A model generated the notes under the pieces. The model was given only the letters and a program-made list of their open reading frames with translations. It was not told where the DNA came from and ran no database searches. From positions 310,001-374,000 of the forward strand of contig NIVC01000100.1 of the NCBI GenBank assembly GCA_002269645.1: DNA of 64,000 bases, written 5' to 3'. Positions 34,716 through 62,500 of the stretch are shown here, in pieces (within the stretch, counting starts at the first letter, position 1; every line of letters starts with the position of its first letter). The DNA is from Macrostomum lignano (Eukaryota). The translations under genes were made by a program, and so were the position numbers.

Positions 34716-34752
<37 letters not shown>

Positions 34753-34760
34753 GACTGTTT
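34588..34760. repeat. (GTCT)n microsatellite
   Basis: Tetranucleotide run with interruptions. Confidence 0.95.
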
Positions 34761-39357: not shown

Positions 39358-42300
39358 ACTACTATATGAACCCGTATCCGTTGATTTTGGAGGTGGGGTG
39401 GGTGTCAACCCTCCTTGCCTCTCATTGGCTGGCGCCCCGATCACTAGGTGATCGATACCCGTATCGATATCGGCGCTCGGCACGCGCGCGCGCCGCAGGC
39501 GCGTGGCGCCAAGCGCCGCAGGCGCACCCTCCCGATATTAGATCCCAATAAATCAATCAGATCCCAAATCAATCAGATCCCAAGCGCACCCTCCAGAGCA
39601 GCAGGCGTCCATGCAGCAGGCGCCCCTCCCCGCCGCACGCGCCCTCCCCGACATGTATGCCGCAGGCACCCTCCCCGCCTCAGGCGCCCCTCCCGATATG
39701 TATGCGCACTCTCCCTATATGTACACCGATATGTATGCAGCAGGCGCCCCGAGTGTACACTCTCCCGATATGTGTGTACACCGATATGTAGTCATCGATA
39801 CGGGCCTCTTCCCCTCTCTCACCTACATCTCAACTAGCGAAATCGAACCCAGGTCGCGCCCATACTAGGACACTACACGGTTGTGGGGTATAGGGAGCGA
39901 GAAGTTTCAACCCTAACGCTGACGCAGCCCTGTACAATGAGCGTGTACGGGCAGAAAGGGGGGGTGGACAGAGAGACGGCCACTAGGTTATTATACTGTT
40001 GAAGCATAGAGAGCGAGAAGTTTTAACCCCGATGCTGACGCAGCCCTGTACACTGAGCGTGTACGGGCAGAGGGTGGGTGGAAAGAGATGTGAATAACAC
40101 AGCCTGCTGCAGGAGCCGGATAGAGAGGCGCATGCTAGGACAGAGAGGTAGTGTGAGTCACACACACTCCACAGAGAAAGCCATACAGAGGATAGAGAGC
40201 TCCCTCCCCAGTTGCAGGGGACAGAGAGGCAGGCAGGGTATGCAGGGGCATGCGAACCGTCAAGGGGCCACGCGAGGATAGAGTGGAGGAGCAGAGATGT
40301 GTTTGGACAGAGAGCCAGCCACGTGTGCGTAGTGTGAGGGAACAGAAACATATGGAGCAGGAGGGAGATAGGAAGCAAACGCGCAGGGTAAGGGAGCCAC
40401 ACAGGGCGGTACAGTGAGACACGGGCAGGGGTGGAGCCGTGCGTGGACAGAGCTGAACGGCACGGTCAGCTGCAGGAATAGGATGATAGAGAGGCGCGGA
40501 GGGGGACAGAGAGCAGTGTGCAGGGGTAGGCAGCCACGCAGGCTGGGGAACAGAGAGGCGCGTGTCAGCCAGTTGCAGCCCGGGACAGAGAAGTATGAAG
40601 GGGGGCCTGGGACAGAGTTCGAGCAAGGCACAGAGGTAGGGTCCTGTAGCTATGTATAGGCAGGGAGCCACGCGAGGGCAGGACAGGGGAGCAGACATGC
40701 AAGTTGCATGCAAGGCCAGAGAGGTGTGCGCGGAGGGAGACAGAGAGCAGTGTGTAGGGGTAGGTAACAGCAAACTTTAGTAGCGGCGCGTGCGGGGACG
40801 GAGAAACCAGTCAGAGCATACAGAGACGTTACAGAGAGGTACACAAGCAGAGACCAAAGCGAGCAGAGCACATGTGTAGGGACAGAGACGTGAGGGAGAA
40901 TCGACCAAAACACGCTATGTATTTTCAAAAGTTGGTTTTAGTGCAACATGTTTAATAGTGGGTAGTATAATAGTATGTACATAGTAGGTATAATAGTAGT
41001 AATAATAGTAAGCATATTAGCCCAAAAGGTAGACTAAAACAGGCTAAACTGTGTGTACGCATCCTCATCACCCCACAAGCCCCCTCTCCCGCCAGACTCA
41101 CTCTACCAAACCCTCCTGTATTGCTGCATGAAGGAAAATATAGTGTAAAAATACAGATCTTAACCGTCAGACCGCTGAAATCAGGGCACACTAGAGGGGG
41201 TTTCGGGGTCTGCATGCTCTATGTAAGCTGCTTGAGGAGGTTCCAAGGGCGTTGTGAGGGTTTCCATTATGTTTTGAAAAAAAAAACTAGGGGCTTAAAT
41301 ACAACGTTTTATTCAAAAGTAGGTTATTTTAATGAAATAGCTGACACAATCATTGTCGAGAGTAGAAATTTTTATAAGAAACCAGGCATTTTAGCAAAAA
41401 TAAACCTTCAAACCACATAAAATTGAATAAAAAGCAGACATTTTCAATTATAAACCGCAAGTATTTTAATAGAAAAGTAAGCAAACAAGGCACAAAACCA
41501 GCAAATTTTACCTTTTTATTTTAATGTTACTGATAAGGTAGAGAGTAGAAACTTGTGAGCTGTACGGAGTTAGAAAGTATTAACCATTATGTATCGTATG
41601 AATTATTAGTTCAGTACCAGCCATTGGTCAAGCGAGCATTTATGAAGTTATTACGAGTGATGAAGGGATAGAGAGCTATATACAGGAAGACAGTATCCTT
41701 CTAAACCACCACGAACAGATTGCTAATAGAGATAAGCTTTGTCTGTGTGCAGTATGAGTAAGCGAAGGCGGGGCAAATACTTTTCCACATGCCGGACAGA
41801 ACAGTATTGTGCTAGGATTTCTCTCGAAATCGCGGTACGTTACTAGTTTTTATCACACCATCCAGATGCGTCAACTAGTCAGCAGTAGTCATTTATATGT
41901 TATTAGAACTTACAAACCCAGGTCAAGTAAATATTACAAAGAGTATATTACGTACACACGCCAACTCCGAATACCAAGCCATACTAGTCTACTTGCAGTG
42001 CTCCTGGAGGGAAGGGACGGCGGGGTGTACATCCGGCAGGGTGGGCGTCCAGCGAGTGTACATCTGACAGGATGGGTGTTCAGCAAGTGTACATCTGACA
42101 GGGTGGGCGTTCAGCAAGTGTACCTTCAGCGTCGAGTAGGTGTACACCCGTCAGTGGGAACTCAGCCCCTCCCACCAATGTCGTGTGCATGCGGTTAGTC
42201 AGTATAGTGGTGGGGTAGACGGTGCAGGAAGGAAACCCAGATGCTGACGCTACCCTGTACAGCGAGCAACCAACCCTCCTGTAGCAGGAGGGGGACAGAG

Positions 42301-42429
42301 AGTGCGTGGAGGCAGTAGGAGATAGAGGACGCTACCCGGCATGTCGCAGCACGCGGCGCGGGACAGAGAGGCAGTGTGTAAGTCACCCCCGCGGAGGGAC
42401 AGAGAGCTACCCTGGCAGGAGGCGCGGGA
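39358..42429 (+). repeat. Left arm of the foldback element
   Basis: Reverse complement of the right arm; mirrored ORF pairs, e.g. 41809-42198(+) and 43179-43568(-). Confidence 0.97.
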
Positions 42430-42947: not shown

Positions 42948-45900
42948 TCCCGCGCCTCCTGCCAGGGTAGCTCTCTGTCCCTCCGCGGGGGTGACTTACA
43001 CACTGCCTCTCTGTCCCGCGCCGCGTGCTGCGACATGCCGGGTAGCGTCCTCTATCTCCTACTGCCTCCACGCACTCTCTGTCCCCCTCCTGCTACAGGA
43101 GGGTTGGTTGCTCGCTGTACAGGGTAGCGTCAGCATCTGGGTTTCCTTCCTGCACCGTCTACCCCACCACTATACTGACTAACCGCATGCACACGACATT
43201 GGTGGGAGGGGCTGAGTTCCCACTGACGGGTGTACACCTACTCGACGCTGAAGGTACACTTGCTGAACGCCCACCCTGTCAGATGTACACTTGCTGAACA
43301 CCCATCCTGTCAGATGTACACTCGCTGGACGCCCACCCTGCCGGATGTACACCCCGCCGTCCCTTCCCTCCAGGAGCACTGCAAGTAGACTAGTATGGCT
43401 TGGTATTCGGAGTTGGCGTGTGTACGTAATATACTCTTTGTAATATTTACTTGACCTGGGTTTGTAAGTTCTAATAACATATAAATGACTACTGCTGACT
43501 AGTTGACGCATCTGGATGGTGTGATAAAAACTAGTAACGTACCGCGATTTCGAGAGAAATCCTAGCACAATACTGTTCTGTCCGGCATGTGGAAAAGTAT
43601 TTGCCCCGCCTTCGCTTACTCATACTGCACACAGACAAAGCTTATCTCTATTAGCAATCTGTTCGTGGTGGTTCAGAAGGACACTGTCTTCCTGTATATA
43701 GCTCTCTATCCCTTCATCACTCGTAATAACTTCATAAATGCTCGCTTGACCAATGGCTGGTACTGAACTAATAATTCATACGATACATAATGGTTAATAC
43801 TTTCTAACTCCGTACAGCTCACAAGTTTCTACTCTCTACCTTATCAGTAACATTAAAATAAAAAGGTAAAATTTGCTGGTTTTGTGCCTTGTTTGCTTAC
43901 TTTTCTATTAAAATACTTGCGGTTTATAATTGAAAATGTCTGCTTTTTATTCAATTTTATGTGGTTTGAAGGTTTATTTTTGCTAAAATGCCTGGTTTCT
44001 TATAAAAATTTCTACTCTCGACAATGATTGTGTCAGCTATTTCATTAAAATAACCTACTTTTGAATAAAACGTTGTATTTAAGCCCTAGTTTTTTTTTTC
44101 AAAACATAATGGAAACCCTCACAACGCCCTTGGAACCTCCTCAAGCAGCTTACATAGAGCATGCAGACCCCGAAACCCCCTCTAGTGTGCCCTGATTTCA
44201 GCGGTCTGACGGTTAAGATCTGTATTTTTACACTATATTTTCCTTCATGCAGCAATACAGGAGGGTTTGGTAGAGTGAGTCTGGCGGGAGAGGGGGCTTG
44301 TGGGGTGATGAGGATGCGTACACACAGTTTAGCCTGTTTTAGTCTACCTTTTGGGCTAATATGCTTACTATTATTACTACTATTATACCTACTATGTACA
44401 TACTATTATACTACCCACTATTAAACATGTTGCACTAAAACCAACTTTTGAAAATACATAGCGTGTTTTGGTCGATTCTCCCTCACGTCTCTGTCCCTAC
44501 ACATGTGCTCTGCTCGCTTTGGTCTCTGCTTGTGTACCTCTCTGTAACGTCTCTGTATGCTCTGACTGGTTTCTCCGTCCCCGCACGCGCCGCTACTAAA
44601 GTTTGCTGTTACCTACCCCTACACACTGCTCTCTGTCTCCCTCCGCGCACACCTCTCTGGCCTTGCATGCAACTTGCATGTCTGCTCCCCTGTCCTGCCC
44701 TCGCGTGGCTCCCTGCCTATACATAGCTACAGGACCCTACCTCTGTGCCTTGCTCGGAACTCTGTCCCAGGCCCCCCTTCATACTTCTCTGTCCCGGGCT
44801 GCAACTGGCTGACACGCGCCTCTCTGTTCCCCAGCCTGCGTGGCTGCCTACCCCTGCACACTGCTCTCTGTCCCCCTCCGCGCCTCTCTATCATCCTATT
44901 CCTGCAGCTGACCGTGCCGTTCAGCTCTGTCCACGCACGGCTCCACCCCTGCCCGTGTCTCACTGTACCGCCCTGTGTGGCTCCCTTACCCTGCGCGTTT
45001 GCTTCCTATCTCCCTCCTGCTCCATATGTTTCTGTTCCCTCACACTACGCACACGTGGCTGGCTCTCTGTCCAAACACATCTCTGCTCCTCCACTCTATC
45101 CTCGCGTGGCCCCTTGACGGTTCGCATGCCCCTGCATACCCTGCCTGCCTCTCTGTCCCCTGCAACTGGGGAGGGAGCTCTCTATCCTCTGTATGGCTTT
45201 CTCTGTGGAGTGTGTGTGACTCACACTACCTCTCTGTCCTAGCATGCGCCTCTCTATCCGGCTCCTGCAGCAGGCTGTGTTATTCACATCTCTTTCCACC
45301 CACCCTCTGCCCGTACACGCTCAGTGTACAGGGCTGCGTCAGCATCGGGGTTAAAACTTCTCGCTCTCTATGCTTCAACAGTATAATAACCTAGTGGCCG
45401 TCTCTCTGTCCACCCCCCTTTCTGCCCGTACACGCTCATTGTACAGGGCTGCGTCAGCGTTAGGGTTGAAACTTCTCGCTCCCTATACCCCACAACCGTG
45501 TAGTGTCCTAGTATGGGCGCGACCTGGGTTCGATTTCGCTAGTTGAGATGTAGGTGAGAGAGGGGAAGAGGCCCGTATCGATGACTACATATCGGTGTAC
45601 ACACATATCGGGAGAGTGTACACTCGGGGCGCCTGCTGCATACATATCGGTGTACATATAGGGAGAGTGCGCATACATATCGGGAGGGGCGCCTGAGGCG
45701 GGGAGGGTGCCTGCGGCATACATGTCGGGGGAGGGCGCGTGCGGCGGGGAGGGGCGCCTGCTGCATGGACGCCTGCTGCTCTGGAGGGTGCGCTTGGGAT
45801 CTGATTGATTTGGGATCTGATTGATTTGGGATCTGATTGATTTGGGATCTGATTGATTTATTGGGATCTAATATCGGGAGGGTGCGCCTGCGGCGCTTGG

Positions 45901-46051
45901 CGCCACGCGCCTGCGGCGCGCGCGCGTGCCGAGCGCCGATATCGATACGGGTATCGATCACCTAGTGATCGGGGCGCCAGCCAATGAGAGGCGAGGAGGG
46001 TTGACACCCACCCCACCTCCAAAATCAACGGATACGGGTTCATATAGTAGT
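42948..46051 (-). repeat. Right arm of the foldback element
   Basis: Differs from the left arm by a few SNPs and two extra copies of a 16-bp unit (TGGGATCTGATTGATT). Confidence 0.97.
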
Positions 46052-46188
46052 AATAACAAGCTTTTCCAACTCTTGCTTTAAGTCTAGAGTGTCAGTTTTG
46101 ACTAATGCCAAGTGTATTTTAGTTTAAATTTAGAATTTAGAGTACATTGACAGTTAAACAAAATCAAATAGAATGTAAATAAACATGT

Positions 46189-48391
46189 TGATGTAACCGC
46201 CCTTGTCGCCGGTCCGCTCCGTAGAGAGACGAACGCATGACTAGAGGGGGCAATGACCGTAGGCTGCCTATGACCGGGCAATGGCCTGACGGACCTCCAG
46301 CACCAGACTGTCCCGCCCACATGATTGATAGCTTTGGTAGCGCTTCGTGACCAGAGGGCCAAGGACCCACATGGACCCCACCTGTAGCCAAGGTGCAATA
46401 GTTGGTCACTCGGTCATAGTATGACCGAGTGGCTGCCACCACTCTATGTGACCTGGCGCACCTGGATCTTTCTACCAGACCTCTCGAGGCTAGAGCCCCG
46501 CCTGGGATGGTTACCAGGAGATTTAGGCTAACAGGGGAGACACATGCAGCCGAGTACAGGGACTCTGCTTGGGGCATGATCGGGAACTCTGGGCTCAATC
46601 TGGAGGATTTCTCAGCAGGGGATCCTTTGTGGCTGTGAGCGAGGCTAACTTGCGACTTTGATTACTAAGAGTAGTATGAGGCGAACATGTACTGTCTATA
46701 GTTTAGATTGCTCAGGGCGAAGGGACGCGTCAGCATGGGGTTGCAACCTTCCTACTGCCATTCTGTGCCAAGACTCGCTAATCCCTCTACTGCACGCACA
46801 CGCGGCCCCGCAGCACGCACTCACAGGCGGGCTGTGCACGGGGAGAGGCCATTAGCTTACCCAAACTTCCTTATGCTTTGCCACCCCGGGAGAAAGGCTT
46901 AGCAAGCCATGAGAGAAATGATGGTGAAAGAGTAAATAATGATGGAGTTAGTTAATAGTTAATAATTAGGCCCTTAGGCGAATAATCAGGCAATTAGGCA
47001 GCTTCACTATTGAGTAAAATACAGCAAAAGGTTACGGTATCACAATTGGCTCAGCTCTCTAATCAGACAATGGAAAAATAGGCAAACCCCGGATAAGCAA
47101 GGCGATTAGAGCACAAATTAGTAATAGGAACTTACCGGCAGCTGCACAGAGAGAGAGAGAGGCGGAGTGACCGAGGGCGGCTGTAGGCTGCAGTCAGGCA
47201 GACGGTGAAGCGGCGATGCGCTGAAGCGACGAGGCGCTGATGTAGATCAGGCGATGCTGATGATGCTGGGCGGTATCAGACCGCTGGCCGATAGGCGAGC
47301 TCACTTGGGGAGCTAAGGATAACTTGGCGGTAACAGACCGCGGACCGGCAGGGATTCGTCTTATAGACGAATGGGTCAGAACTCAATCTGACAGCAAGTC
47401 CAAAGAAGGACGAGGAGAGGAAAAGTTGAGGATTCTCATGCCGAAATCGCTTCCTTTTATAAACCTCACAGCCGCCTCCTCAAGGTCGTTACCATGGCTC
47501 CCTCTCTCTGATTGGCTGCCGGCAGAATGACGTCAGAATGAGTCATGATGAGAAGCATGATACCGGCATAGCAACATGAGAAATCGGGAAATTGCGCAAT
47601 CCGGAGGTGGGGTGGGGGATAATTGGCGCAGCGGGTGGTCGCGAAAGTGTTGCGCAAGCAAACATTGAGAACAATAGGGCTGGGGTCGAGAACAAAGGAA
47701 TTGGAAATTGGGGATAATTGGAGAGAACTGAGAACAATGGAAAAGTAAACATTGGGGAAAAGGTGATAATTAGGTGCGAAAACGAGAACAAAAGAAAGAG
47801 AAAATCGGAGAAAATGTGATAATTGGTGGGGGTTGAGAGAACAAAAGAATCAAAAACGAGAACAATAGAAGCGGAGGTGGGGTGGGTGTCGCATGAGAAA
47901 TTTGGGAAGGAGAACAATGGCGTGAGAAAAGGTTGCGCAAGAGAGGGGGATGAGTCATCGATGAGTCACCGAGGGGGGGAAGGGGTCACACGACTTGCGT
48001 CACCGTTTGGGAGTTTTGGAGGGGATGGGGAGACGGTGAGCACACAAAATACTGTAAGTAGACACAGGGAAAGAGGGGACAGCGCAGGAAAAGAGTGCAG
48101 AGGGAGACAAAAAGAGGGGGGATAGGGAAAGTACAGGAAGAATAGGGCGAAAAACAGAAGAGATAGGGTAGAGGGGGAGGTACAGAGAGGGTAGGGAGCT
48201 CCGGAAAGGCAGGTGTGGCGGCAGGGGAGACGGAACCAAGGCAGCAGGAGGGGTGCAGCAGAGCGGGAGTCTCCAGGCCTGGTCGGAGACCTGGCCGAGT
48301 CTCGACGGCTCTGTGCAGGGGGTGCACAGGATAGGAGGCACTTTCAAAAAGTTCCCATGCCCTATCCCGCGACCAGAGCGTGGTTACATCA
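46189..48391 (-). repeat. 3' LTR (2203 bp)
   Basis: Differs from the 5' LTR by about 6-8 substitutions and 3 small indels that I could see. Confidence 0.97.
47455..47970 (-). promoter_or_regulatory. LTR promoter/enhancer: TATAAAA, CCAAT, CRE, AP-1, C/EBP sites and GAGAACAA repeats (also in the 5' LTR at ~58290-58810)
   Basis: TATA 47455-47461; ATTGG 47511; TGACGTCA 47528; TGAGTCA 47539, 47951, 47962; ATTGCGCAAT 47591; TTGCGCAA 47650, 47933. Confidence 0.7.
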
Positions 48392-48408
48392 TACCCCCAC
48401 TGCCTTTT
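48392..48408 (-). other. Polypurine tract AAAAGGCAGTGGGGGTA
   Basis: Directly abuts the 3' LTR on the element sense strand. Confidence 0.8.
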
Positions 48409-49446
48409 GTGATGGAACTGGTTCCGTCATCACCACTGCCCAACATGGAACCACACAGACGGGAGCAGGATCTCAACCAAACTGGAAACTACAGAATTAA
48501 CAAACCGCGAACGGGGAGTGGGGGAAAAGACGATATAATAGAGGAGATAGCAATAAATTCACTGAATGAAATACATAGGTTGAAGTACAATACAGAATTT
48601 CAAAAATTTCAACTGTTGCTGTGGCTAAAGTGGGAAGGGGGAAACACAGGCAGCGCAATAATAGGGAGAAAAATATCGGATTGTCAATAATAAATTATCA
48701 TAATTGGATAGAAGCGCAGCTGGGGGAGAGAGGAAACGGGGAAGGGTGAGGGAGGTAGGGAAAAAAAGAAGGGGTTGTTGCTAGCACACAGCCAAGGGCA
48801 GAGCCTCGGGGAGAATGACAATTACACCGGGGGGAAAATAGCGCAGTAAATTAATAAACTAATTTCGCCGGGAGTTCAACCGCACGGAGGCCTAGCATCC
48901 TCGAAGGCTCGGACCCCCCTTCAGCCAGTCAGGGAGCTTCGGGGCGATCGGTTGTAGGCTGGGAGGCGCCGCGCCGGGTGCTGGCCACTGTATAAAAGGC
49001 GCCACTGATGACGGGAGCCGGCTGCCTGCAATCTGCACCGAGTCGCAGTTCCTAACCAAGGCCCTCAGCGCGATCTTCCAAACTATACAACTACTCGGTA
49101 AGTCCCATCACCAATCTGATTTCTTTTCACCTATACGTTAAACGATATCTACCCACTTGCCATGCCTTTCATATTAAACTGAGCCAACTGTAGTAGTACA
49201 ATATGTCTTTTCTTACGGTAATAAGAGTGAGAGGCCAACACAGACTTATTTTTATGAATTTGAGTGACGCACAACAAATACTCATATATTATTAGTAAAG
49301 GTGGCATATTAGAAAACAAGTTATTATTAGAAAAATAGTAAAATATTATAAAATTAGGGGCATACACAGACACACACACAAGCCAAAGGGTGAGAATGCC
49401 ATCCGGGCCGGCCGGCAGGTGCCACTCCGCGGGGCGTGCAGCGGCC

Positions 49447-50799
49447 TCACTCGAGGTCGGCCTCGCGGTTGAGCTGATAGGGGCCATAGGCGGCGACTTG
49501 AGCCATGGCACGGGCCCATGCTTCCACATATCGCTGGGCGGCCGCCGCCGTCAAGACGACGCGGTGGCAGCTACTGGGCAGGATATCATTAGGCAAGACA
49601 CCCCTCAGCTGCGGCAGAGTGGGAATGCCTAAAGCTTGGCACTGCACCACGAACGCGGCGTTGCGCGCTTGCTGCAGACGAGTGAGCGTCGGGGCGGAGA
49701 GCGGCGGCTGGGCGATGGCGAAATATTGCATCGAGCCGCGCGGCACCTCAGCCAGGCCCGCGTAGCCAGGCTCCACGTCGCCCAGGGCCGCCAACACCCA
49801 GCCGCAGCGCCTGTTGAATTGACTCGACAGGATGGCCGCCCACGCCACCGTGGCAAATGGGGCGTAGAGCAGTGGCGCGGCTGCAGGGGCTGAGGCTGCG
49901 AGGATGCCATCATGGAGAATGAGGGTGTCTTCCCACTCGGCGCCTGCGCATAGGAAAGTCCACAGCAGGCCCGGCAGGTCCGCCGGCAACATTCCCCAGA
50001 GGCTGGCCATGCTGGTCAGGCCGAGCAGCAGCCGGGCGCGTTGCGTCGAGGAGAGCTGCCGGCTCATCAGCGAGGAGGCCGCACAGCTCACGACCACCTT
50101 TTTGTACACAGGACGCTCGTTAGGATTGAAAATGGTCTTGAGAGCCGCGCACGACGGTGGCCGGGCCGTTAGATGGGACGGCTCGTCCTCCACCACATGC
50201 CGCAGGAATTTGGAGGCCTGTCGCACGAGGTCGCTGATGGCGTACTTGTACGGATGCTGCGCCGCCACCTCCACGTACATCAGGAGCGTGCTGTCCACCA
50301 GACCTTGCAGGGCCGCCTTGGACAGGATAAGCAGGCAGGGCCTGTCCAGATTGTCCCGCATTTGTCGTTCTAGCGTTGAATGCCGATCCTCAGCCTGCAT
50401 GGGGCCATAGTAGGGCTCGGGCCCCACCCAGTGGATCAGATCTCTAGCTGTAGTCGAGAGTCCGCCAGCCGTTTGACCCCAATCTACTTCATCTCGTTGT
50501 AGGGCGATGTCGACACTCCGCCGGCTGCTGGGCAGGACGTCCCGCAGGCGGCCGGCAGCCTCGCTGAATTCGGCCACCACATCCGAGAGGTCGTCATCTT
50601 CGGTGCTGGCAGAGCTGTCTGTCTCGGCGTCGTCATCGAGAGGGGCGACCCGGGCGGCTGACGCTACCGGTGACGCGGGGTCATCTTCCGCCTCCTGGCT
50701 GCCGTCCCATGGCCGCTTCCGACTGACCGGACTGGCAGGCCGCTCTGACGGTGAGTCTGGGCGCAGCCGAATGCGATTGACGCTGGGTTTGTTGTCCAT
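49447..50799 (-). CDS. 450-aa orphan accessory ORF of the LTR element; N-terminal NLS-like RKRP and acidic tract
   Basis: Uninterrupted GC-rich ORF; TATAAGA at 50891-50897 and CCAAT at 50918 and 51005 upstream. No recognised domain, signal peptide or clear TM segment. Confidence 0.8.
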   Translation of the reverse strand: MDNKPSVNRIRLRPDSPSERPASPVSRKRPWDGSQEAEDDPASPVASAARVAPLDDDAETDSSASTEDDDLSDVVAEFSEAAGRLRDVLPSSRRSVDIALQRDEVDWGQTAGGLSTTARDLIHWVGPEPYYGPMQAEDRHSTLERQMRDNLDRPCLLILSKAALQGLVDSTLLMYVEVAAQHPYKYAISDLVRQASKFLRHVVEDEPSHLTARPPSCAALKTIFNPNERPVYKKVVVSCAASSLMSRQLSSTQRARLLLGLTSMASLWGMLPADLPGLLWTFLCAGAEWEDTLILHDGILAASAPAAAPLLYAPFATVAWAAILSSQFNRRCGWVLAALGDVEPGYAGLAEVPRGSMQYFAIAQPPLSAPTLTRLQQARNAAFVVQCQALGIPTLPQLRGVLPNDILPSSCHRVVLTAAAAQRYVEAWARAMAQVAAYGPYQLNREADLE

Positions 50800-51376
50800 A
50801 AATAGCCGAATAACTTTCCGGGCACTTGGCTGGTCGAATGGAGGAATTGTTTCTCAAATTGACGGTCTCTACTCCGGTAGGTGCGGGTCCTCTTATAACG
50901 TTGGAGGCTGACTCCTCATTGGTTGAGCACGTTGGGAGACACACAGGCTGAGGCCGGGGTCACCGTTGGCTTGGGACCGCTCTTTCCAGTCTCCGTGTGT
51001 GCTGATTGGCTGGTTCCGCCGCTCCCTGTGTTCCTCACCCTTGAGCAGGGGGCAGATCCGAGACCGCTTCCGTTCGCGCCCGCGGCGGATCCGTACTCCG
51101 GCCGACCGAGATCGCACTCCCATCTCACATACACACATTCAGATCAGGCACACCAGTTAATTTGGTTAGTAGGAGTAGCAGAAGGATTTGGGAGATTAGA
51201 CTCCAGAAGATGAATGATGAAGCGGCCCAACTCTTTTCCATTTCTTCCCTCAACGCCACACACACACGCAGCCCTCATTCACGTCTCCGAAACCCTCATA
51301 AACTTAATAGCCGAAAGAGTTTGAAAGAAGAATTAATCATTAATTTGACGAACTACCATAGCAGAGAAAGGGGAAA

Positions 51377-51612
51377 CTACCACCATCTTGATGCATTACT
51401 AAAGAGGAGAAAAAGAAAGAAGAATTGCCACCATTTTGGGAGGGGTTACTAGGGAAAACTGCCACCATTTGCACTTTCATCAGAGAAGAGAAAACGAAAG
51501 ACTACCACCATTTTGGGTGTACTGTTAAAAAAGAAGGCGGGGAGGAAAACTGCCACCACTTTGAGTGTTTTATTAAAGGGAGGGGGAGAAAAAAGCTACC
51601 ACTACTTGACCA
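51377..51612 (-). repeat. Array of six PBS/LTR-junction-like motifs (consensus CAAAATGGTGGCAG on the element strand)
   Basis: CT(G/A)CCACCAT(T/C)TTG-like copies at 51377, 51425, 51459, 51502, 51550 and 51596, matching 57018-57031. Confidence 0.75.
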
Positions 51613-51753
51613 CCTCGAGCCCAAGAGAGGGAGAAAGAATGAAGAAATCCCCAAGAAGGTCACTACCACACGCCGTAAAATCCCCATCTATCTACATCCT
51701 AACACCCGGCTAGTTCCCCACTCCTATTTCATCCCTTAAACTCTCGCTTTCAG

Positions 51754-52160
51754 GATTCCGGCCGTTAGTAGCTGAGCCCATCCTCGAAGAAGAGTCTGAT
51801 TACGAAGCGCCCGAGGACAGCCATTCGGAGCCAGACGCCCCCTCTGGTTTAGGGCCGGCCGCGCCATCAGGCAACGTCGGCGCCGCGGCTCCAGAGCCCT
51901 GCGACCGCCGAGCCGCCAGCGAAACAGCGTCCGGGGACGGTTGGCATCCGGCGCCACCGCCACTGTCAGCCCGCGCGCACTCTCAGCCGCCGGTCGCCGC
52001 GGTGGCGCCCGTGGCTGCCGCTCCACAGCCCTCGCCAGCCCCTGTGGTGGAGACCGACGGCTCCTGGCACTGGGTCGTGCTGGCGACGGCCCTGATAGCC
52101 GGTCTCACCATGCACTGGCTGCTGCTCTTGGAGCTGTTTCTGCGGCTTCCCAACTGCTGA
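51754..52160 (+). CDS. Antisense terminal exon encoding an acidic/Pro-Ala-rich segment and a C-terminal TM helix
   Basis: Acceptor CTCTCGCTTTCAG; 135 open codons ending ...GSWHWVVLATALIAGLTMHWLLLLELFLRLPNC*; AATAAA at 52268. Not in the ORF track because there is no early ATG. Confidence 0.5.
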
Positions 52161-52744
52161 TGCTAGATGCTCTAGCGCTAACTTTTCCTACTAATTCTAA
52201 GCTATCGGCTCTCATAACTAACTCCAATTACTGGTTACTCATTAAATCTATGCTTAGCCCACTCTAAAATAAACATTGCTCCCCATCTGCCTGATAAACT
52301 TAATTACATTAAATGTCCCCCCTATTGCCTCATCGAAACCAATTAAAGGTTTCCCAAAATCTGACTTTCACAAGGTGTGAACAAACACACGAAATCGGAC
52401 CTAAAGGTGCTAATTTCTACGGTCCCAGAATTCTATTGTCCCAGAAAATCTTGAACAGCGGGGCAGGACCTCCTGTGGGGCAGACCCAGAGAAATTATTC
52501 TAGTTTCCGAGATAATATTTACTGAAAGGGAATTAACGCATACCGTACGGGCCTAATTTTCGAGCTAAAATCTTGGAAATTTAAACAACACCAACGAGCA
52601 CGAGGTCACAACATACATTCGGATAATAGAGGGCATACGTAAATACGCGAAAAGCGGTTCCAACGGGGCAAAACGAGCAAAATTTCGACACGCGAATCGG
52701 GGGGGGGGGATTAAGCAATCACTGGCTAGCTACCAATCTGTCAC

Positions 52745-53269
52745 TCAGCGGGGGTCGAATGGGAGACTCACACCTAGCAAGTAAACCTTTTCTGTTCGAT
52801 AGTCTATGATAGCATGCGTACTGGCTAGAAAAGCACTACCCAGGAGGGAAACTGCTGCTGAATTGCCAACGACTAGAAAGAGGATTCTCACCTCTTCTAG
52901 CCCAATAACTGCTGTGGGGGTGGCCTGGCCTAGCATCTCTAATTCATTGCCCGTGTAGGACACGGCCTTCACACATGGGGGCTCCAAGGCCTCCACACTC
53001 TGTCCGGTAATTTTAGTAAAGTCTTTGACTGTTAGCAAAGACAGCGCACTGCCCCCATCCACCAGGAGGCGGGTGGGAACATTCTCAATTGGCAACTCTA
53101 CAACAATATCTCTCCCGCGTTGTCCTCTAGCTGGTCTTGGCTGATAGAAATCGGGTACCTTCTCAAATCTAAACTTCTTGCTGGGCGGACTTGGCAGGTT
53201 AATCTGGGCCCTAGAGAGGGAACGGGGCTGAGTTCGGGCCGGGCCATTCAGCCCTCCCACGGGTTTCCC
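52745..53269 (-). CDS. pro: Retropepsin-type protease ORF, -1 frame relative to gag, ending in a stop right after PR
   Basis: RLLVDGGSALSLL (D-G-G at the catalytic D-T/S-G position); SLLGSAFL second motif; overlaps the gag end. Confidence 0.85.
   Translation of the reverse strand, partial: GKPVGGLNGPARTQPRSLSRAQINLPSPPSKKFRFEKVPDFYQPRPARGQRGRDIVVELPIENVPTRLLVDGGSALSLLTVKDFTKITGQSVEALEPPCVKAVSYTGNELEMLGQATPTAVIGLEEVRILFLVVGNSAAVSLLGSAFLASTHAIIDYRTEKVYLLGVSLPFDPR
53225..53269 (-). promoter_or_regulatory. -1 ribosomal frameshift signal: G GGA AAC plus downstream GGGCTGA/TCAGCCC stem
   Basis: Slippery heptamer at 53263-53269 in the correct gag phase; 7-bp stem 53225-53231/53248-53254; possible pseudoknot via GGCCC/GGGCC. 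Confidence 0.75.
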
Positions 53270-54687
53270 GAACCCGGAGGCTCTTCAGGCGTGGGAGGAG
53301 GGGGCATCAGGGCTTGCGCGCGCAGCTGGGCGAGCCTCTCCTGCCTCTCCCTGGTAGCCTCGTCTAACATCTCCCTGCCCCAATCCTCTAAATCTTGCCT
53401 ATGGCGATCGGGTGGCGCACGAAGCTGCAACTGCTGCTGCTGCACACCCGGCGCCGGCGGCGTGGGCGCCTCCTGAATTGCAAGCGGCGGGGGCTGGGAT
53501 TGGCGCCAGTTGCTATTAGAGCCGCCCTGCCCCCGTCTCCAGTTCCTGTTGGGAGTGGCGGGGCGAGGGGGCCTCATCTGCTGGGGCAGCTGGGCAACAG
53601 ACTCTGCTGTCACCCTCATGGTTTCATTGAGCTGCACCAGCTGGTTGCGCAGGTCCTTTTGCGTTTGCTCTAGCGCGCCCAACCTCTCCTGCATCTCTGA
53701 TAGGCCGTCACCGTCCTCCTCCGTCTCGTCAGCTTCCTGGTTCACCATCCTGACCCACTTGCGAGGGGGCCTGGGCGGCTGCTGAGGTTGCAGACGGACT
53801 TCAGCGCGGGACTCAGACTTGGGTGGGCCACCACTATCCCATTTCCCAGCCAAGTCGGCGGCCTCTAACAGGGCTTGCTGCTGTTCTAGAACCTGCTCGA
53901 TCGTCTGCCAGCGTCGGCTCAACAGATCTTGTCTGACCTGGCGGGGGAGCCTGGCGTGTTCCAAATAGGTATACACGATCTCCTGTTCTCTCTGCTCACC
54001 CTGAATCTGAGGAAACATGGCCGTTATCTGAGATCTGATCATAGCGGCAAAAGCACTATGTGATTGGCCTGGTTTCTGACTCAGATTCTTCAGCTTATTT
54101 CTCTTAGCCAGGTCAGTGTTGGCCTCGCCTAACTGTTCTCCTAATCTCGCTACGAACTGCTCAAATGGCAATTGCCCGTCCAATCCTAAGGCTAGGTTCT
54201 GAAATTCACCTGGAAGGTGGGAGATAAGTACTTGCTTCCTAGCCTGATCTCCTACAGTTCTCTCTGCGTCCAGCTTGTAGACTATTCTCTCTACCCATTG
54301 CACAAAACAGTGTTCGCCGGGAGAGAACTTCTCTACGTAGATTTTCGGCCTCTGAGCCTCTTGGCCCATGTTCAGCTGGTTAAACGCATTGGCTATAGCA
54401 GCAACTAAGTCTCCTAGCTGCGGGACTGCCTGAGGAGGATTCTGGGCTGCGTCCGGGGGAGCAGCGGCGGCTGCTGCCTCACCCTGATTGGGAGCGGGAG
54501 CTGCTACTCCTTCATCTGGTTCCTCAACTACTACTGCTTCTGGAGGCTGAGGGACCTGGTTACCAGCGGCTGCGGCCATTGCGGCTGCGGGGGCGGCAAC
54601 TGCTGGGGTGTCAACGGCCGAGGGTGGTTGGCCAGGGGCGTCTGCGCACACAGCTTCTACGACCCTATCTCCACGCGCCCGTGACAT
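53248..54687 (-). CDS. gag: Gag (479 aa, Ty3/Gypsy-type capsid, no zinc knuckle)
   Basis: KIYVEKFSPGEHCFVQWVERI...LISHLPG and MHR-like LKNLSQKPGQSHSAFAAMI; coiled coil; position between PBS and protease. Confidence 0.85.
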   Translation of the reverse strand: MSRARGDRVVEAVCADAPGQPPSAVDTPAVAAPAAAMAAAAGNQVPQPPEAVVVEEPDEGVAAPAPNQGEAAAAAAPPDAAQNPPQAVPQLGDLVAAIANAFNQLNMGQEAQRPKIYVEKFSPGEHCFVQWVERIVYKLDAERTVGDQARKQVLISHLPGEFQNLALGLDGQLPFEQFVARLGEQLGEANTDLAKRNKLKNLSQKPGQSHSAFAAMIRSQITAMFPQIQGEQREQEIVYTYLEHARLPRQVRQDLLSRRWQTIEQVLEQQQALLEAADLAGKWDSGGPPKSESRAEVRLQPQQPPRPPRKWVRMVNQEADETEEDGDGLSEMQERLGALEQTQKDLRNQLVQLNETMRVTAESVAQLPQQMRPPRPATPNRNWRRGQGGSNSNWRQSQPPPLAIQEAPTPPAPGVQQQQLQLRAPPDRHRQDLEDWGREMLDEATRERQERLAQLRAQALMPPPPTPEEPPGSGNPWEG

Positions 54688-57007
54688 GTGAATGCCGGAT
54701 AGCTGGGGGAGTACCCACTACCGGGAAGGAAAAGAAAAGGAAACCGGGGCAACTACAGGTAAAAACCGAATAAGTTGACCCGAAACACACGCACTCACAC
54801 ACACAAATACAGACAAAACTCACACACTTGCGGCGTCGAAGAAAACAAATTGAAAAACGGGTGTCTCCACATAATTTCATTTAGGCAGTCCTAACGGCTT
54901 CACTCGGCAAAGCACACAAACTCAAACTGCGGCTACCACTACCAATTGTCTATGGCACATCCTGACAGGGAAAATTGGCTATTCAGAGAGACTTGACCTT
55001 CATTCTGCGGCCATGCTAGGGAACCCAAATGCCGACCGTAAACGGACTTACGGCACCTGTACAAATTCTCCCCTAGGGTTGCGCGCCGGACCCCATTTCC
55101 TTAAGAAAGCCACTACGAAGAAGCGTTGGCGCCTGGACCCAAAACTCAAGTGGCGGGAGCAATCCCCATGGAGGTCCTCCCACTTTATTGCCCTTGCACA
55201 ACCGGAAAACCGTCGGCGCCCAGAGGGGCTTCCACTCTCAGGACTACCAATCTTGTACACGCGGCTTCACAAAAGGTGGGAATCCAACTCCCCTACGTCT
55301 AGCAGAATCCACAAAAACCAAAATCTCCCCTTTCTGTTCAGAGCGAAGGCGCGCAGCGGGAGTCCAGACTAAACTCTCCCCGAAGTTTTCAGGTTAGGTG
55401 GATTACAAGCCTGAAACTCTCGCCCGCTTCCCTAAGATAAACAGACCTAAGTGAGTATCTTCCTGAAATGCTTGTCCCTCCGATACTCCACCTTTGCTGC
55501 AGCTCGAAATAGCATACTTGGGACCTTTATCTGATGGCGGAGAAAGTCCTACAGTTGTCAGCCTCTCCACTTTACTGTACTTGAACGCCCGGTTCTACCA
55601 GGAGACAGCGGTACCTCCATCTAGGTTATTCCAAGTTGCCAGAGACGTCAACCCGTCTTATTGACCTTGCGGGGCACTGGGGTGGCACTCAATGTACCGG
55701 GGCCTTACATTAGGGGACTGCATGCAACCCTGCGTCTAAGCGCTTAGTGGGCTGCAGTGGCCAGAGGGGAAAGAGTTGCGCAATAGCGCCTTCCTGGGCC
55801 AGGCTGACAAGTCGGGCAGGAGCGCCGTTCTACCGGGTCGGGCTGATTGGCACACCCACCTCCCCTATCAGACTGACGGCAGGGGAAGAAATTACTAAAG
55901 GAGGAGAATGCAGCAGGAAAAATTACGAGATCACTGGGGACCACCAGACTTCCAGTACACCATTCCAATACTCACTGAACTCCACTACCAATAGGAGACT
56001 ATGGGATCTACTATTTCCAGCCACTACACCAGCCCAAATGCAACCAAAGCAGTTACTACCGGGTCTGCAATGCAGTGGGGAGAGCCAGCAGACACGTTGG
56101 GATCGAATCCCAGCCATAAGGGCACCAGGGGTTACCGCAGAATTCAGGTCCGGGCTGATCGCAGGTATTCCATAGGAGGTGACACTTTTTTAGCCCGAGA
56201 TTTTTGAGTCACACTAATACCCTACAGAGATACAATCACACCGCTATTCCCATTCCTGCGAGACTTTGATATCTCCCAATGTTTCCAAGGCCATGACTAC
56301 TGCTTCCCTTACTTTGCATATATAGCGAATTCTCCATAGCCCTTGATAGCTGTTCATTCTAATGGACAAACAAAACACGCTCCGGTCTCTACGCATTTCT
56401 AGGATTAACTGTTACACTCCCCCGAGTAAAAGAAAGAGGTAGGACAATGGAAAGAAATGCTTTGCTTCCAGCTTCCCTGTGCTTGCGTGATGAGGCTTCC
56501 GTACCTGGCTGGCTGTCCACCTCAACACTCACACAGTTCCGCTGTAGGCTAGGCGAGAGAAAGAAAGGGAGGGGAAATAAATCATATTACCGTGGAATAG
56601 AAAGTGAGTCCGGAAATTCACTTTCGCAGTTCTTCACACACTCCGTTACCAGGTAGCTATTCTGATTGTAATCAAATCCGCTCGTCTACCACTTCACACT
56701 TGCTAGCGCTGAAACTCATCGGCTAAATTAATTTTAAATTGAATCAGGGGCTTTTTGCGAATGAATGAATTTTGAACTTGAATGAATTGAATGAATTCGC
56801 AGCCCGAAAAATTTGAAAAATTACATTAATATTTTTGGATTTTTGTTGCCTCACGCCATGGGAGAAGAGAATGACGCTCGGCGATTTTTATAATTGGTAG
56901 ATCTAGACATGGCACACTTTGCGCTTCGGCCACCATTCTGAGGGATGCCACAGGTGCGCTTGTCACATCTAAACCACCAGTCCGAAACTCAGCGCTGTTT
57001 GCACCAG

Positions 57008-57025
57008 ATCCCACCGCTGCCACCA
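57008..57025 (-). other. Primer-binding site TGGTGGCAGCGGTGGGAT, complementary to the 3' end of tRNA-Leu
   Basis: 18-nt match to ...ATCCCACCGCTGCCA-CCA (metazoan tRNA-Leu AAG/TAG type), 3 nt inside the 5' LTR boundary. Confidence 0.9.
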
Positions 57026-57028
57026 TTT

Positions 57029-59226
57029 TGATGTAACCGCCCTTGTCGCCGGTCCGCTCCGTAGAGAGACGAACGCATGACTAGAGGGGGCAATGACCGT
57101 AGGCTGCCTATGACCGGGCAATGGCCTGACGGACCTCCAGCACCAGACTGTCCCGCCCACATGATTGATAGCTTTGGTAGCGCTTCGTGACCAGAGGGCC
57201 AAGGACCCACATGGACCCCACCTGTAGCCAAGGTGCAATAGTTGGTCACTCGGTCATAGTATGACCGAGTGGCTGCCACCACTCTATGTGACCTGGCGCA
57301 CCTGGATCTTTCTACCAGACCTCTCGAGGCTAGAGCCCCGCCTGGGATGGTTACCAGATTTAGGCTAACAGGGGAGACACATGCAGCCGAGTACAGGGAC
57401 TCTGCTTGGGGCATGATCGGGAACTCTGGGCTCAATCTGGAGGATTTCTCAGCAGGGGATCCTTTGTGGCTGTGAGCGAGGCTAACTTGCGACTTTGATT
57501 ACTAAGAGTAGTATGAGGCGAACATGTACTGTCTATAGTTTAGATTGCTCAGGGCGAAGGGACGCGTCAGCATGGGGTTGCAACCTTCCTACTGCCATTC
57601 TGTGCCAAGACTCGCTAATCCCTCTACTGCACGCACACGCGGCCCCGCAGCACGCACTCACAGGCGGGCTGTGCACGGGGAGAGGCCATTAGCTTACCCA
57701 AACTTCCTTATGCTTTGCCACCCCGGGAGAAAGGCTTAGCAAGCCATGAGAGAAATGATGGTGAAAGAGTAAATAATGATGGAGTTAGTTAATAGTTAAT
57801 AATTAGGCCCTTAGGCGAATAATCAGGCAATTAGGCAGCTTCACTATTGAGTAAAATACAGCAAAAGGTTACGGTATCACAATTGGCTCAGCTCTCTAAT
57901 CAGACAATGGAAAAATAGGCAAACCCCGGATAAGCAAGGCGATTAGAGCACAAATTAGTAATAGGAACTTACCGGCAGCTGCACAGAGAGAGAGAGAGGC
58001 GGAGTGACCGAGGGCGGCTGTAGGCTGCAGTCAGGCAGACGGTGAAGCGGCGATGCGCTGAAGCGACGAGGCGCTGATGTAGATCAGGCGATGCTGATGA
58101 TGCTGGGCGGTATCAGACCGCTGGCCGATAGGCGAGCTCACTTGGGGAGCTAAGGATAACTTGGCGGTAACAGACCGCGGACCGGCAGGGATTCGTCTTA
58201 TAGACGAATGGGTCAGAACTCAATCTGACAGCAAGTCCAAAGAAGGACGAGGAGAGGAAAAGTTGAGGATTCTCATGCCGAAATCGCTTCCTTTTATAGA
58301 CCTCACAGCCGCCTCCTCAAGGTCGTTACCATGGCTCCCTCTCTCTGATTGGCTGCCGGCAGAATGACGTCAGAATGAGTCATGATGAGAAGCATGATAC
58401 CGGCATAGCAACATGAGAAATCGGGAAATTGCGCAATCCGGAGGTGGGGTGGGGGATAATTGGCGCAGCGGGTGGTCGCGAAAGTGTTGCGCAAGCAAAC
58501 ATTGAGAACAATAGGGCTGGGGTCGAGAACAAAGGAATTGGAAATCGGGGATAATTGGGGAGAACTGAGAACAATGGAAAAGTAAACATTGGGGAAAAGG
58601 TGATAATTAGGTGCGAAAACGAGAACAAAAGAAAGAGAAAATCGGAGAAAATGTGATAATTGGTGGGGGTTGAAAGAACAAAAGAATCAAAAACGAGAAC
58701 AATAGAAGCGGAGGTGGGGTGGGTGTCGCATGAGAAATTTGGGAAGGAGAACAATGGCGTGAGAAAAGGTTGCGCAAGAGAGGGGGATGAGTCATCGATG
58801 AGTCACCGAGGGGGGAAGGGGTCACACGACTTGCGTCACCGTTTGGGAGTTTGAGAGGGGATGGGGAGACGGTGAGCACACAAAATACTGTAAGTAGACA
58901 CAGGGAAAGAGGGGACAGCGCAGGAAAAGAGTGCAGAGGGAGACAAAAAGAGGGGGATAGGGAAAGTACAGGAAGAATAGGGCGAAAAACAGAAGAGATA
59001 GGGTAGAGGGGGAGGTACAGAGAGGGTAGGGAGCTCCGGAAAGGCAGGTGTGGCGGCAGGGGAGACGGAACCAAGGCAGCAGGAGGGGTGCAGCAGAGCG
59101 GGAGTCTCCAGGCCTGGTCGGAGACCTGGCCGAGTCTCGACGGCTCTGTGCAGGGGGTGCACGGGATAGGAGGCACTTTCAAAAAGTTCCCATGCCCTAT
59201 CCCGCGACCAGAGCGTGGTTACATCA
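57029..59226 (-). repeat. 5' LTR (2198 bp)
   Basis: Direct repeat of 46189-48391; adjacent to the PBS. Confidence 0.97.
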
Positions 59227-59747
59227 ATGTATGATAATCTTTAGCTCAATGTTCACAAAGTTCTGAAAATAAATGAAAAGTAGTTAGACTTAGAGTAGGC
59301 TATTCTAAGTACTATTTGGCAGTATACTAAAAAACTATGCAAACTATTTAGGCTATAGAAACTACCAATATCACAAAACGTTACAGAGATATATCTCAAA
59401 AAGCTGTATAGCAATATAATTTTCCATTTTCTATCAGTAAAGAAATTAAAAGTCAAATAAAATACCAATATCATTACCTTATTGGCTTAGCTTTTACATT
59501 GCCAAGCCTCTGAGTCATAGAATTTGCTGAAGTGTGTAGACTATGTTTTGAGTTTGTAAAATAATTGAAATATCAATTGAAACCAAAAGTACAAAAAGTG
59601 TAGAACTTAAATTAAATTACATCTAGGTAAGAAAAAAACAGGGTGCCAATTTGGCATATGGGTCCAAATCCAGAATACCAAATTAAAGTAAACATTTCAT
59701 GATATGCACTATTAAGCCTATTTCTTCTTAAACTACCTTAATCACAG

Positions 59748-60197: not shown

Positions 60198-60630
60198 CAT
60201 CTGTTAGACTTTATCTGTTAGACGTCTGTTAGACAGCTGTTAGACATACTGTTAGACGTCTGTTAGACAGCTGTTACAAATTTGTTTGTCTTTATCTGTT
60301 AGACGTCTGTTAAACATCTGTTAGACATCTGTTAGACATCTGTCAGACATCTGTTAGACAGCTGTTACGAATTTGTTAGACTTTATCTGTTAGACAGCTG
60401 TCACACATCTGTTAGACATATGTTAAATATCTGTTAGACACCTGTTAGACACCTGTTAGACAGCTGTTACACATCTGTTAGACACATCTGTTTGACATCT
60501 GTTATATATCTTTTAGAGATCTGTTAAAGACCTGTTAGACATCTGTTATACATCTGTTAGATGTCTGTTAGAGATCTATTAGACATCTATTAGACATTAT
60601 TCATGCATCCACTCAGATACATGTTAGACA
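60198..60630. repeat. 11-bp satellite (CTGTTAGACAT)
   Basis: Degenerate tandem array; same family as 61915-62500. Confidence 0.9.
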
Positions 60631-61104
60631 AACAGAGGTTATGAGAAGTTTAGCAAAACACATGAAGCAATTCTGATGTGACTGAACACTGAATATCAGG
60701 AATTTAGGCTTCAGTGAAGAGTAAAAGAGACAGCTAGGTCGAGGCCAGGGCTAGCGGAGGCTGGGGTACAGATGAAGAGGAAAAGCGGTCGCGAGCCCCT
60801 GTGCACCAGCAGTCGATGCAGCTTTAGGGACCCATCACTGGAGCCCATCAGGAGGCTGGGAGTCTGTGGGCGATGAAGAATGATGATAATCCAGATCTGC
60901 AGCGTTTGGGGGGGGGGGAAGAGAGGGGAGGCAGCCAGAGTTATAAATGTGGGACCAGATGCACACACAGGGTAGGACAGGACAATATCTCAGCTGCATC
61001 GGCAACACAGTTGGAGAGAGAAAGTTTTATTCTGAACTGCACTTTTAATACTGGCAACAGCGGCCTGCAGACTGCTGCGTTGCAGCACATTTGGCTGTAG
61101 GGTG

Positions 61105-61560
61105 AGTTTGTTAAACCAGTGAGATTCAGTGAGTGAATGGCACAAAAAGTGAGTGAATGGCACAAAAAGTGAGTGAATGGCAGACAAAGTGAGTGAATGG
61201 CTCATTGTGAATGAATGGCACAAAAAGTGAGTGAATGACACAAATAGTGAGTGAATGACACAAATTGAGAGTGAATGACACAAAAAGTGAGTGAATGGCA
61301 CAAATTGTGAGTGAATGACACAAATAGTGAGTGAATGACACAAATAGTGAGTGAATGACACAAATAGTGAGTGAATGACACAAATAGTGAGTGAATGACA
61401 CAAATAGTGAGTGAATGACACAAATAGTGAGTGAATGACACAAATAGTGAGTGAATGACACAAATAGTGAGTGAATGACACAAATTGTGAGTGAATGGCA
61501 CAAATTTTAAGTGAATGGCACAAATTTTGAGTGATTGTAACCGAATGACACTGAGAGTGA
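61105..61560. repeat. 20-bp minisatellite (GTGAGTGAATGACACAAATA)
   Basis: About 20 units. Confidence 0.95.
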
Positions 61561-61914
61561 ATCAATAAATGGTAAATGGCAAAGTACAGTAATAGTAACT
61601 TTAAAAGAAATTTTTATGGATTTCGTCATGACTTACTTGAGTTCATGTTGGCTGTGATTACATAATTATCCAATAATGTGAGTGGATTTGCATAGCTTTG
61701 CATTAATTATCTTTATGAAAAGCCATTGGCAGGAGAATTACGTGAAATGCATTCGTAATGAGGTCATCAGGGGTTAACCCAGAGGGTCTGTGCCTGCTGC
61801 AACTCGACACTAGGTGGGACTGAACCTAAAATGTGATGCAGTTCTGCTTGGCAACCGCTTGTGTCTGAAGGAAAAGAAAATTTTTATCGGAGAAATGTGT
61901 GTTTCTGTCAACTA

Positions 61915-62500
61915 TATTTGTTAGATATCTGTTAGATATCTGTTAGATATCTGTAAGACATCTGTTAGATATCTGTTAGACATCTGTTATATATCCGTTA
62001 TACATCTGTTAGATATCTGTTAGATATCTGTTAGATATCTTTTAGATATCTGTTAGTCATCTACTAGACAGCTGTTAGATATTTGTTTAGACATCTGTTA
62101 GATATCTGTAAGACATCTGTTATATATCTGTTAGATATCTGTTAGATATCTGCTTGAAATATGTTAAACATGTGTTAGGTACCTTAGACAAGTGTTAGTC
62201 ATCTGTTAGACAGCTGTTAGATATTTGTTTAGACATCTGTTAGATATCTGTAAGATATCTGTTATATATCTGTTAGATATCTGTTAGATATCTGCTTGAA
62301 ATATTTTGAACATGTGTTAGGTACCTTAGACAAGTGTTAGTCATCTGTTAGACAGCTGTTAGATATTTGTTTAGACATCTTTTAGATATCTGTAAGACAT
62401 CTGTTATATATCTGTTATATATCTGTTAGATATCTGCTTGAAATATGTTAAACATGTGTTAGGTACCTTTAGACAAGTGTTAGTCATCTGTTAGACAGCT
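61915..62500. repeat. 11-bp satellite (CTGTTAGATAT) with a ~135-bp higher-order repeat
   Basis: The block ending ...GGTACCTTAGACAAGTGTTAGTC recurs three times. Confidence 0.9.

Follow-up and report, generated by a model that had tools for sequence, protein, structure and literature searches.

Structure and gene content of the element

The window, a stretch of 64,000 nucleotides of the Macrostomum lignano contig NIVC01000100.1 (positions 310,001 to 374,000), carries on its minus strand a 13-kb LTR retrotransposon (46189-59226), with two TG...CA LTRs, a primer site, a polypurine tract and a short target-site duplication. The 5' LTR (57029-59226, minus strand; about 2.2 kb, TGATG...CATCA) and the 3' LTR (46189-48391, minus strand) are 99.4% identical (8 mismatches and 3 gaps in 2208 columns). 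The 18-nt primer-binding site (57008-57025, minus strand), which we take to be that of tRNA-Leu, begins 3 nt after the LTR and is the same in the partner elements and in family B, both described below; the polypurine tract (48392-48408, minus strand) adjoins the 3' LTR, and the duplication ATGT lies at 46185-46188 and 59227-59230 (plus strand). In two sequencing runs (X13 and X15) the empty site is present, 46184 being joined to 59227 with 4 letters in common, so the insertion is young and has not reached fixation.

The element encodes Gag (479 aa; 53248-54687, minus strand), with a weak PNMA match (E 0.026) and a dN/dS of about 0.1 relative to other copies (dS 0.165), and an aspartic protease (LVDGGS; 52745-53284, minus strand), the frame of which overlaps the end of gag and stops without a reverse transcriptase (RT) after it. 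The protease matched gag-asp_proteas at E 0.026, and its family B homologue did so at E 0.001. There is no frame for RT, RNase H or integrase between the protease and the next gene, an ORF of 450 aa, and the element, which encodes none of the three, is not autonomous. We rejected AATAAA (51574-51569) as the gag-protease poly(A) signal, as it is missing at that place in three other copies.

Other repeats occupy parts of the window. About 140 nt from the 3' LTR lies a 3.1-kb inverted repeat pair (39358-42429 and 42948-46051, 98.7% alike), and minisatellite arrays with periods of 8-69 nt lie at 348-4600, 23500-35000 and 60200-63400, including a 30-nt array near 62970-63416 that gives a repetitive 148-aa frame.

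The 450-aa ORF (49447-50799, minus strand) lies in a stop-free frame of 468 codons, compared to a longest stop-free frame of 358 codons (mean 175) in 200 shuffles of 49400-51000; thus, the long open frame reported in the initial annotation is borne out. That annotation also placed the ORF where env would sit, implying a location 3' of pol, which has to be corrected: the element has no pol gene that the ORF could follow. The N-terminus is polar by inspection; its first 70 aa look disordered and hold both an SP-RKRP motif (RKRP, residues 27-30) and an acidic tract (17 D/E compared to 1 K/R in residues 31-80); the conserved body that follows is 28% Leu and Ala, with HDG, YAP..WAA and ALGD motifs. 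The basic motif, acidic tract and Leu/Ala-rich body had all been claimed, and all are present. Within the N-terminus, which is 53% identical overall, there is an identical run of 14 residues, PSERPASPVSRKRP (permutation P = 0.0012).

Upstream of the ORF is a candidate internal promoter (50857-51011, minus strand), consisting, by motif match, of two NF-Y-type CCAAT boxes (51011-51002 and 50924-50915), TATAAGA (50897-50891) and an Inr-like TCAAT (50862-50857). The distance between TATAAGA and the ATG is 91 nt, in agreement with the roughly 92 nt first reported along with the CCAAT boxes. Among 20,000 shuffles of the 301 upstream nt, none contained two such boxes together with a TATA, the patterns having been chosen once the sequence was known. 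The TATA and both CCAAT boxes keep their positions in a subfamily that is 77% identical over the ORF, and the motifs occur at 18 other loci; since these 18 are all near-identical copies, the conservation amounts to two independent sequences, and the footprint is weakened because the whole region upstream of the ORF is 78-89% identical between subfamilies. The CCAAT/TATA layout is absent from family B. Contigs that cover the ORF are present in four sequencing runs that we guessed to be RNA, two of which also hold the empty site, such that DNA may be present; contigs of this kind give neither strand nor expression level. We consider it likely that the ORF is transcribed from its own CCAAT/TATA promoter, as its upstream motifs suggest.

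The ORF itself sits within the predicted intron of a gene on the opposite strand. The 5' part of this antisense gene (48991-49103, plus strand) consists of a candidate promoter (TATAAAAG, 48991-48998), a short first exon and a splice donor (G/GTAAGT, 49097/49098), and is kept in the Pol-bearing partners. The acceptor, a polypyrimidine tract followed by CAG/G (51753/51754, plus strand), precedes a predicted second exon (51754-52160, plus strand) with a low-complexity frame that ends in a hydrophobic stretch and has a dN/dS of 0.20 over 134 codons; no AUG start of the gene was found. The gene is also present at two other loci (L038, 6204-6728; L060, 5861-6385), and family B has a matching donor and acceptor with a different frame of 171 codons at that position (dN/dS 0.17), which means that this gene, like the ORF, is under purifying selection in both families. 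One contig of run X13 joins the donor at 49097/49098 to another acceptor, at 50502, and one contig of run X12 ends at 51753, each being a single contig from a run whose RNA status is a guess. At one locus of a third ORF subfamily (L059, 468-2229), glutamine-rich repetitive frames lie upstream of the ORF, where family B has the antisense exon.

Homologues of the accessory ORF and copies that lack it

A genome search with the ORF returned 72 matches, of which 16 are full-length and stop-free; the other 15 of these are 77-78% identical to the window. The window ORF and this 77% subfamily differ at a dN/dS of 0.10 (dS 1.43) over 449 codons, falling to 0.026 in the last 120 codons, and values of about 0.1 were obtained in three comparisons (Fisher P < 1e-32). 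Stop-free homologues thus exist, and their dN/dS is far from neutral. Many genome copies are otherwise near-identical and are broken by single-base frameshifts at differing places; these frameshifts may reflect errors of assembly and not decay. Turnover of the ORF region between subfamilies is about nine times that of gag. Nucleotide identity is about 97% in gag and protease, 62-78% over the ORF, and recovers after it, from which we infer that recombination with an old subfamily replaced the ORF module. The window's own ORF subfamily is a single copy in the assembly; as a contig of run X15 is 96% identical to it, further ORF variants exist in other individuals.

A second family of elements, family B, has different LTRs, a gag and a protease that are 39% and 40% identical to those of the window element (family A), and the same 13-kb size. 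In the same place it carries an ORF of 388 aa, 23% identical to the window ORF (profile comparison: E 6e-5, probability 64%) with a dN/dS of 0.096, and of 0.10 relative to the third subfamily. The family B ORF lacks both RKRP and the acidic tract, and starts with IKEE.[HY]SP in three subfamilies, presumably a phospho-dependent SUMO-type motif. Outside this genome, we searched 1.84 billion representatives exhaustively and obtained 2 proteins, one of which groups with a full-length protein of 437 aa (P0007), 34% identical over 326 residues, which has no close match in this assembly and has no RKRP. The motifs HDG, YAP..WA and G[DE] are common to the outside relatives and both families, with neither the H nor the D of HDG invariant (NDG and HHG occur).

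All homologues for which surroundings were fetched lie within this element type or its remnants; as far as these copies go, the homologues are element-borne, a point raised at the outset. We considered that the ORF might move among unrelated Gypsy clades and rejected this, because the homologues in question (L059, L061, L062, L066, L042 and L043) lie next to LTR or 3' sequence of family B, which makes them look like remnants or nested insertions. Beside a family B ORF remnant, two near-identical copies (L043, 6521-7753; L042, 3553-4857) have frames that by eye look like a tyrosine recombinase, which we assume to be Crypton-like. With purifying selection and the element context of its homologues both supporting the accessory gene proposed in the initial annotation, the ORF is almost certainly a functional gene borne by the element.

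Copies without the ORF are nevertheless common. Family A has 26 gag loci with no ORF match; among the 20 that we fetched, 16 have a clean deletion of the cassette, 2 are at a contig end and 2 break off inside gag. The deletion breakpoints fall near 51260/49380 (12 loci), near 51165/49310 (2 loci) and at 51426/49491 (2 loci), in all 16 cases between the antisense donor and acceptor; the deletions in family B remove the antisense exon too. Of 13 fetched family B loci, 6 have the ORF and 5 are without it; the remaining two are a locus with an internal deletion and one that breaks off. ORF-less copies have thus multiplied several times, and because copies with the ORF deleted also multiply, the ORF is dispensable in cis. 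At three loci (C4958, C546 and C3414), two LTR/primer-site junctions lie about 9 kb apart, in tandem ORF-less elements with apparently one shared LTR.

Pol-bearing partner elements

A second kind of element in the genome is about 90-97% identical to the window element in the LTR, primer site, leader and 3' region (49220 downward), the LTRs and leader being common to both at about 95-96%, and carries the genes that the window element lacks. Its single frame of 1553 aa starts like the window Gag, falls to 27% identity with it over the capsid and, after a spacer, encodes RT, RNase H and integrase, in the order of Gypsy-type elements; our RT tree included no named reference RT. Family B has a corresponding partner, with B-type LTRs and an RT 72% identical to that of family A. 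Both polyproteins (1553 aa and 1432 aa) matched RT, RNase H and integrase and gave no protease match in Pfam at E 10, and neither contains a D[STG]G[ASC] motif. We also built a protease HMM from six proteases of this genome. None of 12 partner loci matched it, 11 of which span the interval between gag and RT. All 7 related Gypsy elements did match, including five that are distant from the proteases used for training; one further locus in this survey was flank only. The protease-less, Pol-bearing loci of the two families are L050, L052, L053, L069, L100-L104, L063 and L065, and over the stretch from gag to RT nine copies are 99-100% identical to the partner. We had labelled this partner autonomous, and dropped the label once no protease motif was found in it.

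The protease-less RTs of the two families group together (97/99), as do the proteases of their partners (93/90, below the support bar of the tree tool), both trees carrying long-branch warnings. Among 57 exact LTR/primer-site junctions, assigned to types by hand from coordinates, 46 are of the Gag-protease type and 9 of the Pol type (about 5 to 1), with 1 at a contig end and 1 that breaks off after about 130 nt. None of these 57 junctions, a lower bound from one fragmented assembly, belongs to a complete element with the window LTR, and a complete element may be missed because the genome search scores only the best candidates. Likewise, the 121 protease matches listed from the best 150 of 756 candidates scored are all in frames of 229 aa or less. 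The window-type protease is 97-99% identical across copies. There are also dozens of dispersed short protease matches; the three of them that we fetched (L106, 4502-5174; L107, 4419-5101; L108, 4084-4765) are pieces of about 670 nt of protease and downstream sequence, 76-85% identical, with an internal deletion and no LTR match.

Just before the RT, both partners have a V-N-R motif, where complete relatives have V-N-Q, and this could by inference be a cleavage site. The family A Pol element carries the first 60-78 codons of its partner's gag, and its family B counterpart retains the final 39 codons of the family B ORF, a sign that the two genomes have recombined. The shared cis signals, together with junctions inside genes, lead us to infer that both elements are packaged together.

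We therefore think it probable that the two elements need each other, forming a complementary pair; their dependence is likely to be mutual because the Pol element itself lacks a protease. In this pair, one element would express Gag and protease from its LTR and the other would express a Gag-Pol that lacks the protease, the RNAs of both would enter mixed particles by way of the shared leader, and the partner's protease would mature RT and integrase in trans, three steps that we hold jointly with the same good confidence as the pair itself. The Pol element could also use the protease of another family, or need none. The initial annotation was right about the accessory gene, and overlooked the absence of pol, which makes the element look like half of a pair split between protease and polymerase.

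Possible roles of the ORF product and comparison with known systems

On balance, and with a modest lean, we read these elements as an old, obligately two-part Gypsy lineage with two accessory genes, in which ORF-less copies would exploit a shared regulator. By this reading, the sense ORF, representing a new protein family, is nested head to tail within the intron of the antisense gene, and the two genomes share their LTRs through repeated recombination and have split together into at least two pairs. A fuller reading, in which the ORF is carried by the Gag-protease half of a complementing Gypsy pair, has its own promoter and encodes a trans-acting nuclear regulator, is one we hold at slightly less than even confidence. 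Since the ORF probably has its own promoter, it can be made apart from the genomic RNA, and would be expressed separately from it; since ORF-less copies still spread, its product likely acts in trans. The protein would then act in the nucleus, raising expression of the pair or shielding the pair from silencing.

That the product is a nuclear regulator is our best guess, offered tentatively and favoured because of the 14-residue SP-RKRP run, the acidic tract and the IKEE..SP start in family B. Several observations count against it: family B has neither RKRP nor the acidic tract nor the promoter layout, RKRP is missing from P0007, and it is not obvious how selection would keep a purely trans-acting gene while ORF-less copies spread. 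The body of the ORF also has no conserved Cys/His or basic DNA-binding pattern, and its most conserved part, a predicted alpha/beta C-terminal region, may have an enzymatic or a structural role. Thus, of the nuclear accessory factor first proposed, the accessory gene under selection stands, while the simple analogy to foamy virus Tas is weakened by family B, where those three features are missing.

We considered that the product might instead be cytoplasmic or particle-associated, either an adaptor for RNA export or packaging or a Gag partner that sets the ratio of the two genomes, and that of the two Gag proteins, in mixed particles. The restriction of the ORF to the Gag-protease element in both families, the need of a two-part system for balancing and the lack of nuclear-type motifs common to the families would all fit, and Cer1 CERV is described as an element-encoded export factor for genomic RNA (PMC10309623). 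However, if the gene helped packaging, its carriers should have been favoured, and instead copies without it have multiplied time and again; Pfam searches found no RNA-binding motif in the ORF. We regard such a factor as rather unlikely.

Less probable still is that the window element is a semi-autonomous parasite of a Pol element that is self-sufficient or served by other Gypsy proteases, with the ORF acting as an antagonist of the helper or of host defence. The 5 to 1 excess of Gag-protease copies, the Gag-like domain that the Pol element retains and the ninefold turnover of the ORF region are what a parasite might produce, and the wheat GAG-Pro elements are described as dependent on a complete partner (PMC9744471). 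In contrast, the Pol element is without protease in both families while its relatives keep theirs, the protease of its partner is conserved across copies, and selection on the ORF is purifying, not positive.

We place at about the same low level, or just below, the idea that the C-terminal region is a remote and possibly inactive captured enzyme domain, SGNH/GDSL-like or of another flavodoxin-like alpha/beta type. Alternating strands and helices are predicted in the C-terminal half, the HDG and G[DE] motifs are conserved, an SGNH esterase (3hp4) aligned with the model (Z 5.0, rmsd 4.2, 142 residues), and bdelloid LTR elements are described with a GDSL esterase as ORF3 (PMC5408684). However, that alignment ranked 22nd, with its Z under the tool's stated background of 7-8, for a model with a pLDDT of 44; the GDS serine is absent, both the H and the D of HDG vary, and no member of the ORF family has a Pfam match. 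The AlphaFold2 models proposed as a check were made and were poor (mean pLDDT 41.5 and 44.0), and fold searches with them named no function (best Z 7.3 and 6.2, to small helical bundles). Sequence searches, which covered proteins near the query's length, gave no useful match in PHROGs (best E 0.45), PDB sequences (best E 0.098) or the ESM Atlas (best 0.83), nor in metagenome and viral contigs searched with a single protein. In a set of 5.8 billion proteins, there was no useful match with a single protein or with one alignment (A3), and another (A9) returned only the protein P0005. Thus the initial suggestion of a captured host or viral gene gained nothing, as Pfam, protein and structure searches found no donor.

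An atypical Env or a cell-transfer protein is very improbable. The 3' position and sense orientation of the ORF would suit an Env, but a motif scan of the 450 aa found neither an R-x-K/R-R furin site nor an N-x-S/T sequon; the best 19-residue hydropathy window (1.64) lies at a different position in the 77% subfamily, with no hydrophobic segment common to the two and no C-terminal membrane anchor, and predicted viral structures (BFVD) gave no match at E 0.001 or better, with a weak query model. The earlier claim that furin site and anchor are lacking therefore holds, and extends to the sequon and to any conserved hydrophobic segment. Finally, a neutrally carried host fragment or chance frame, as the deleted and frameshifted ORFs of many copies might suggest, is hardly credible given the dN/dS values, the intact full-length relative at 34% identity and the failure to find any host-type copy.

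If the split at the protease is real, and stable across 28% RT divergence, the pair would be a natural segmented reverse-transcribing genome, in which one could test the origin of segmentation, the control of protease timing and of the ratio of Gag to Pol through copy number in place of frameshifting, and the survival of a shared accessory gene amid copies without it. The ORF is the founding member of a protein family to which databases assign no function, and annotation pipelines would call both elements dead.

In foamy viruses, an internal promoter drives the 3' accessory gene tas. HTLV-1 HBZ is a spliced antisense gene expressed from the 3' end (PMC11963269), and the layout in the window, with a 3' accessory gene behind a candidate internal promoter plus an antisense gene predicted to be spliced, resembles the two together; unlike those elements, the window element has no env, its partner has a Gypsy-type RT, and we found no sequence similarity. 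Among plant elements, maize Grande carries the antisense accessory gene gene23, which has a promoter of its own and encodes a nuclear protein for which the accounts give no function (PMC7264820, PMC11963269). Like the window ORF with its candidate promoter, gene23 and the Retand aORFs are accessory genes in the 3' internal region with their own promoter; they are described as antisense genes with TRP28 or other domains, whereas the window ORF is sense, has no Pfam match and is flanked by a separate antisense gene (PMC7264820, PMC11963269). In animals, CERV of C. elegans Cer1 is likewise a novel accessory protein of a Gypsy-type element, with a regulatory role, but is described as made from a spliced mRNA of a complete element (PMC10309623); the database searches with the ORF showed no similarity to it. 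Bdelloid LTR elements also have non-Env ORF3s, a GDSL esterase and a DEDDy nuclease with recognisable catalytic motifs, of which the window ORF has none (PMC5408684).

For the pair, the closest case is wheat RLG_Sabrina_SA, like the window element a Gypsy element with GAG-Pro only, which relies on RLG_Wilma for RT and integrase and is reported to have co-evolved with it over long times, with many derivatives (PMC9744471). However, Wilma is described there as having a complete protein set, whereas the Pol element here has no protease, and the pair here, unlike Sabrina and Wilma as described, shares its whole LTRs and leader at about 95-96% (PMC9744471). RLG_Quinta, which supplies Gag to the autonomous RLG_Cereba (PMC11302176), and BARE-2, which borrows Gag from a complete element (cited in PMC9744471), resemble our pair in sharing cis signals with a partner, one member supplying or borrowing Gag, but in these accounts neither is described as a protease/polymerase split. 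We found no description of a split, bipartite or protease-less retrotransposon pair in the open literature searched, subscription papers and repeat databases being mostly outside it, and one may be recorded elsewhere. In these precedents a defective element leans on a complete one; here both are incomplete. An accessory gene with its own promoter would be of a known kind, and what appears to be new, judged from sequence, is the family to which the ORF product belongs and, for the pair, a split at the protease that seems to be mutual.
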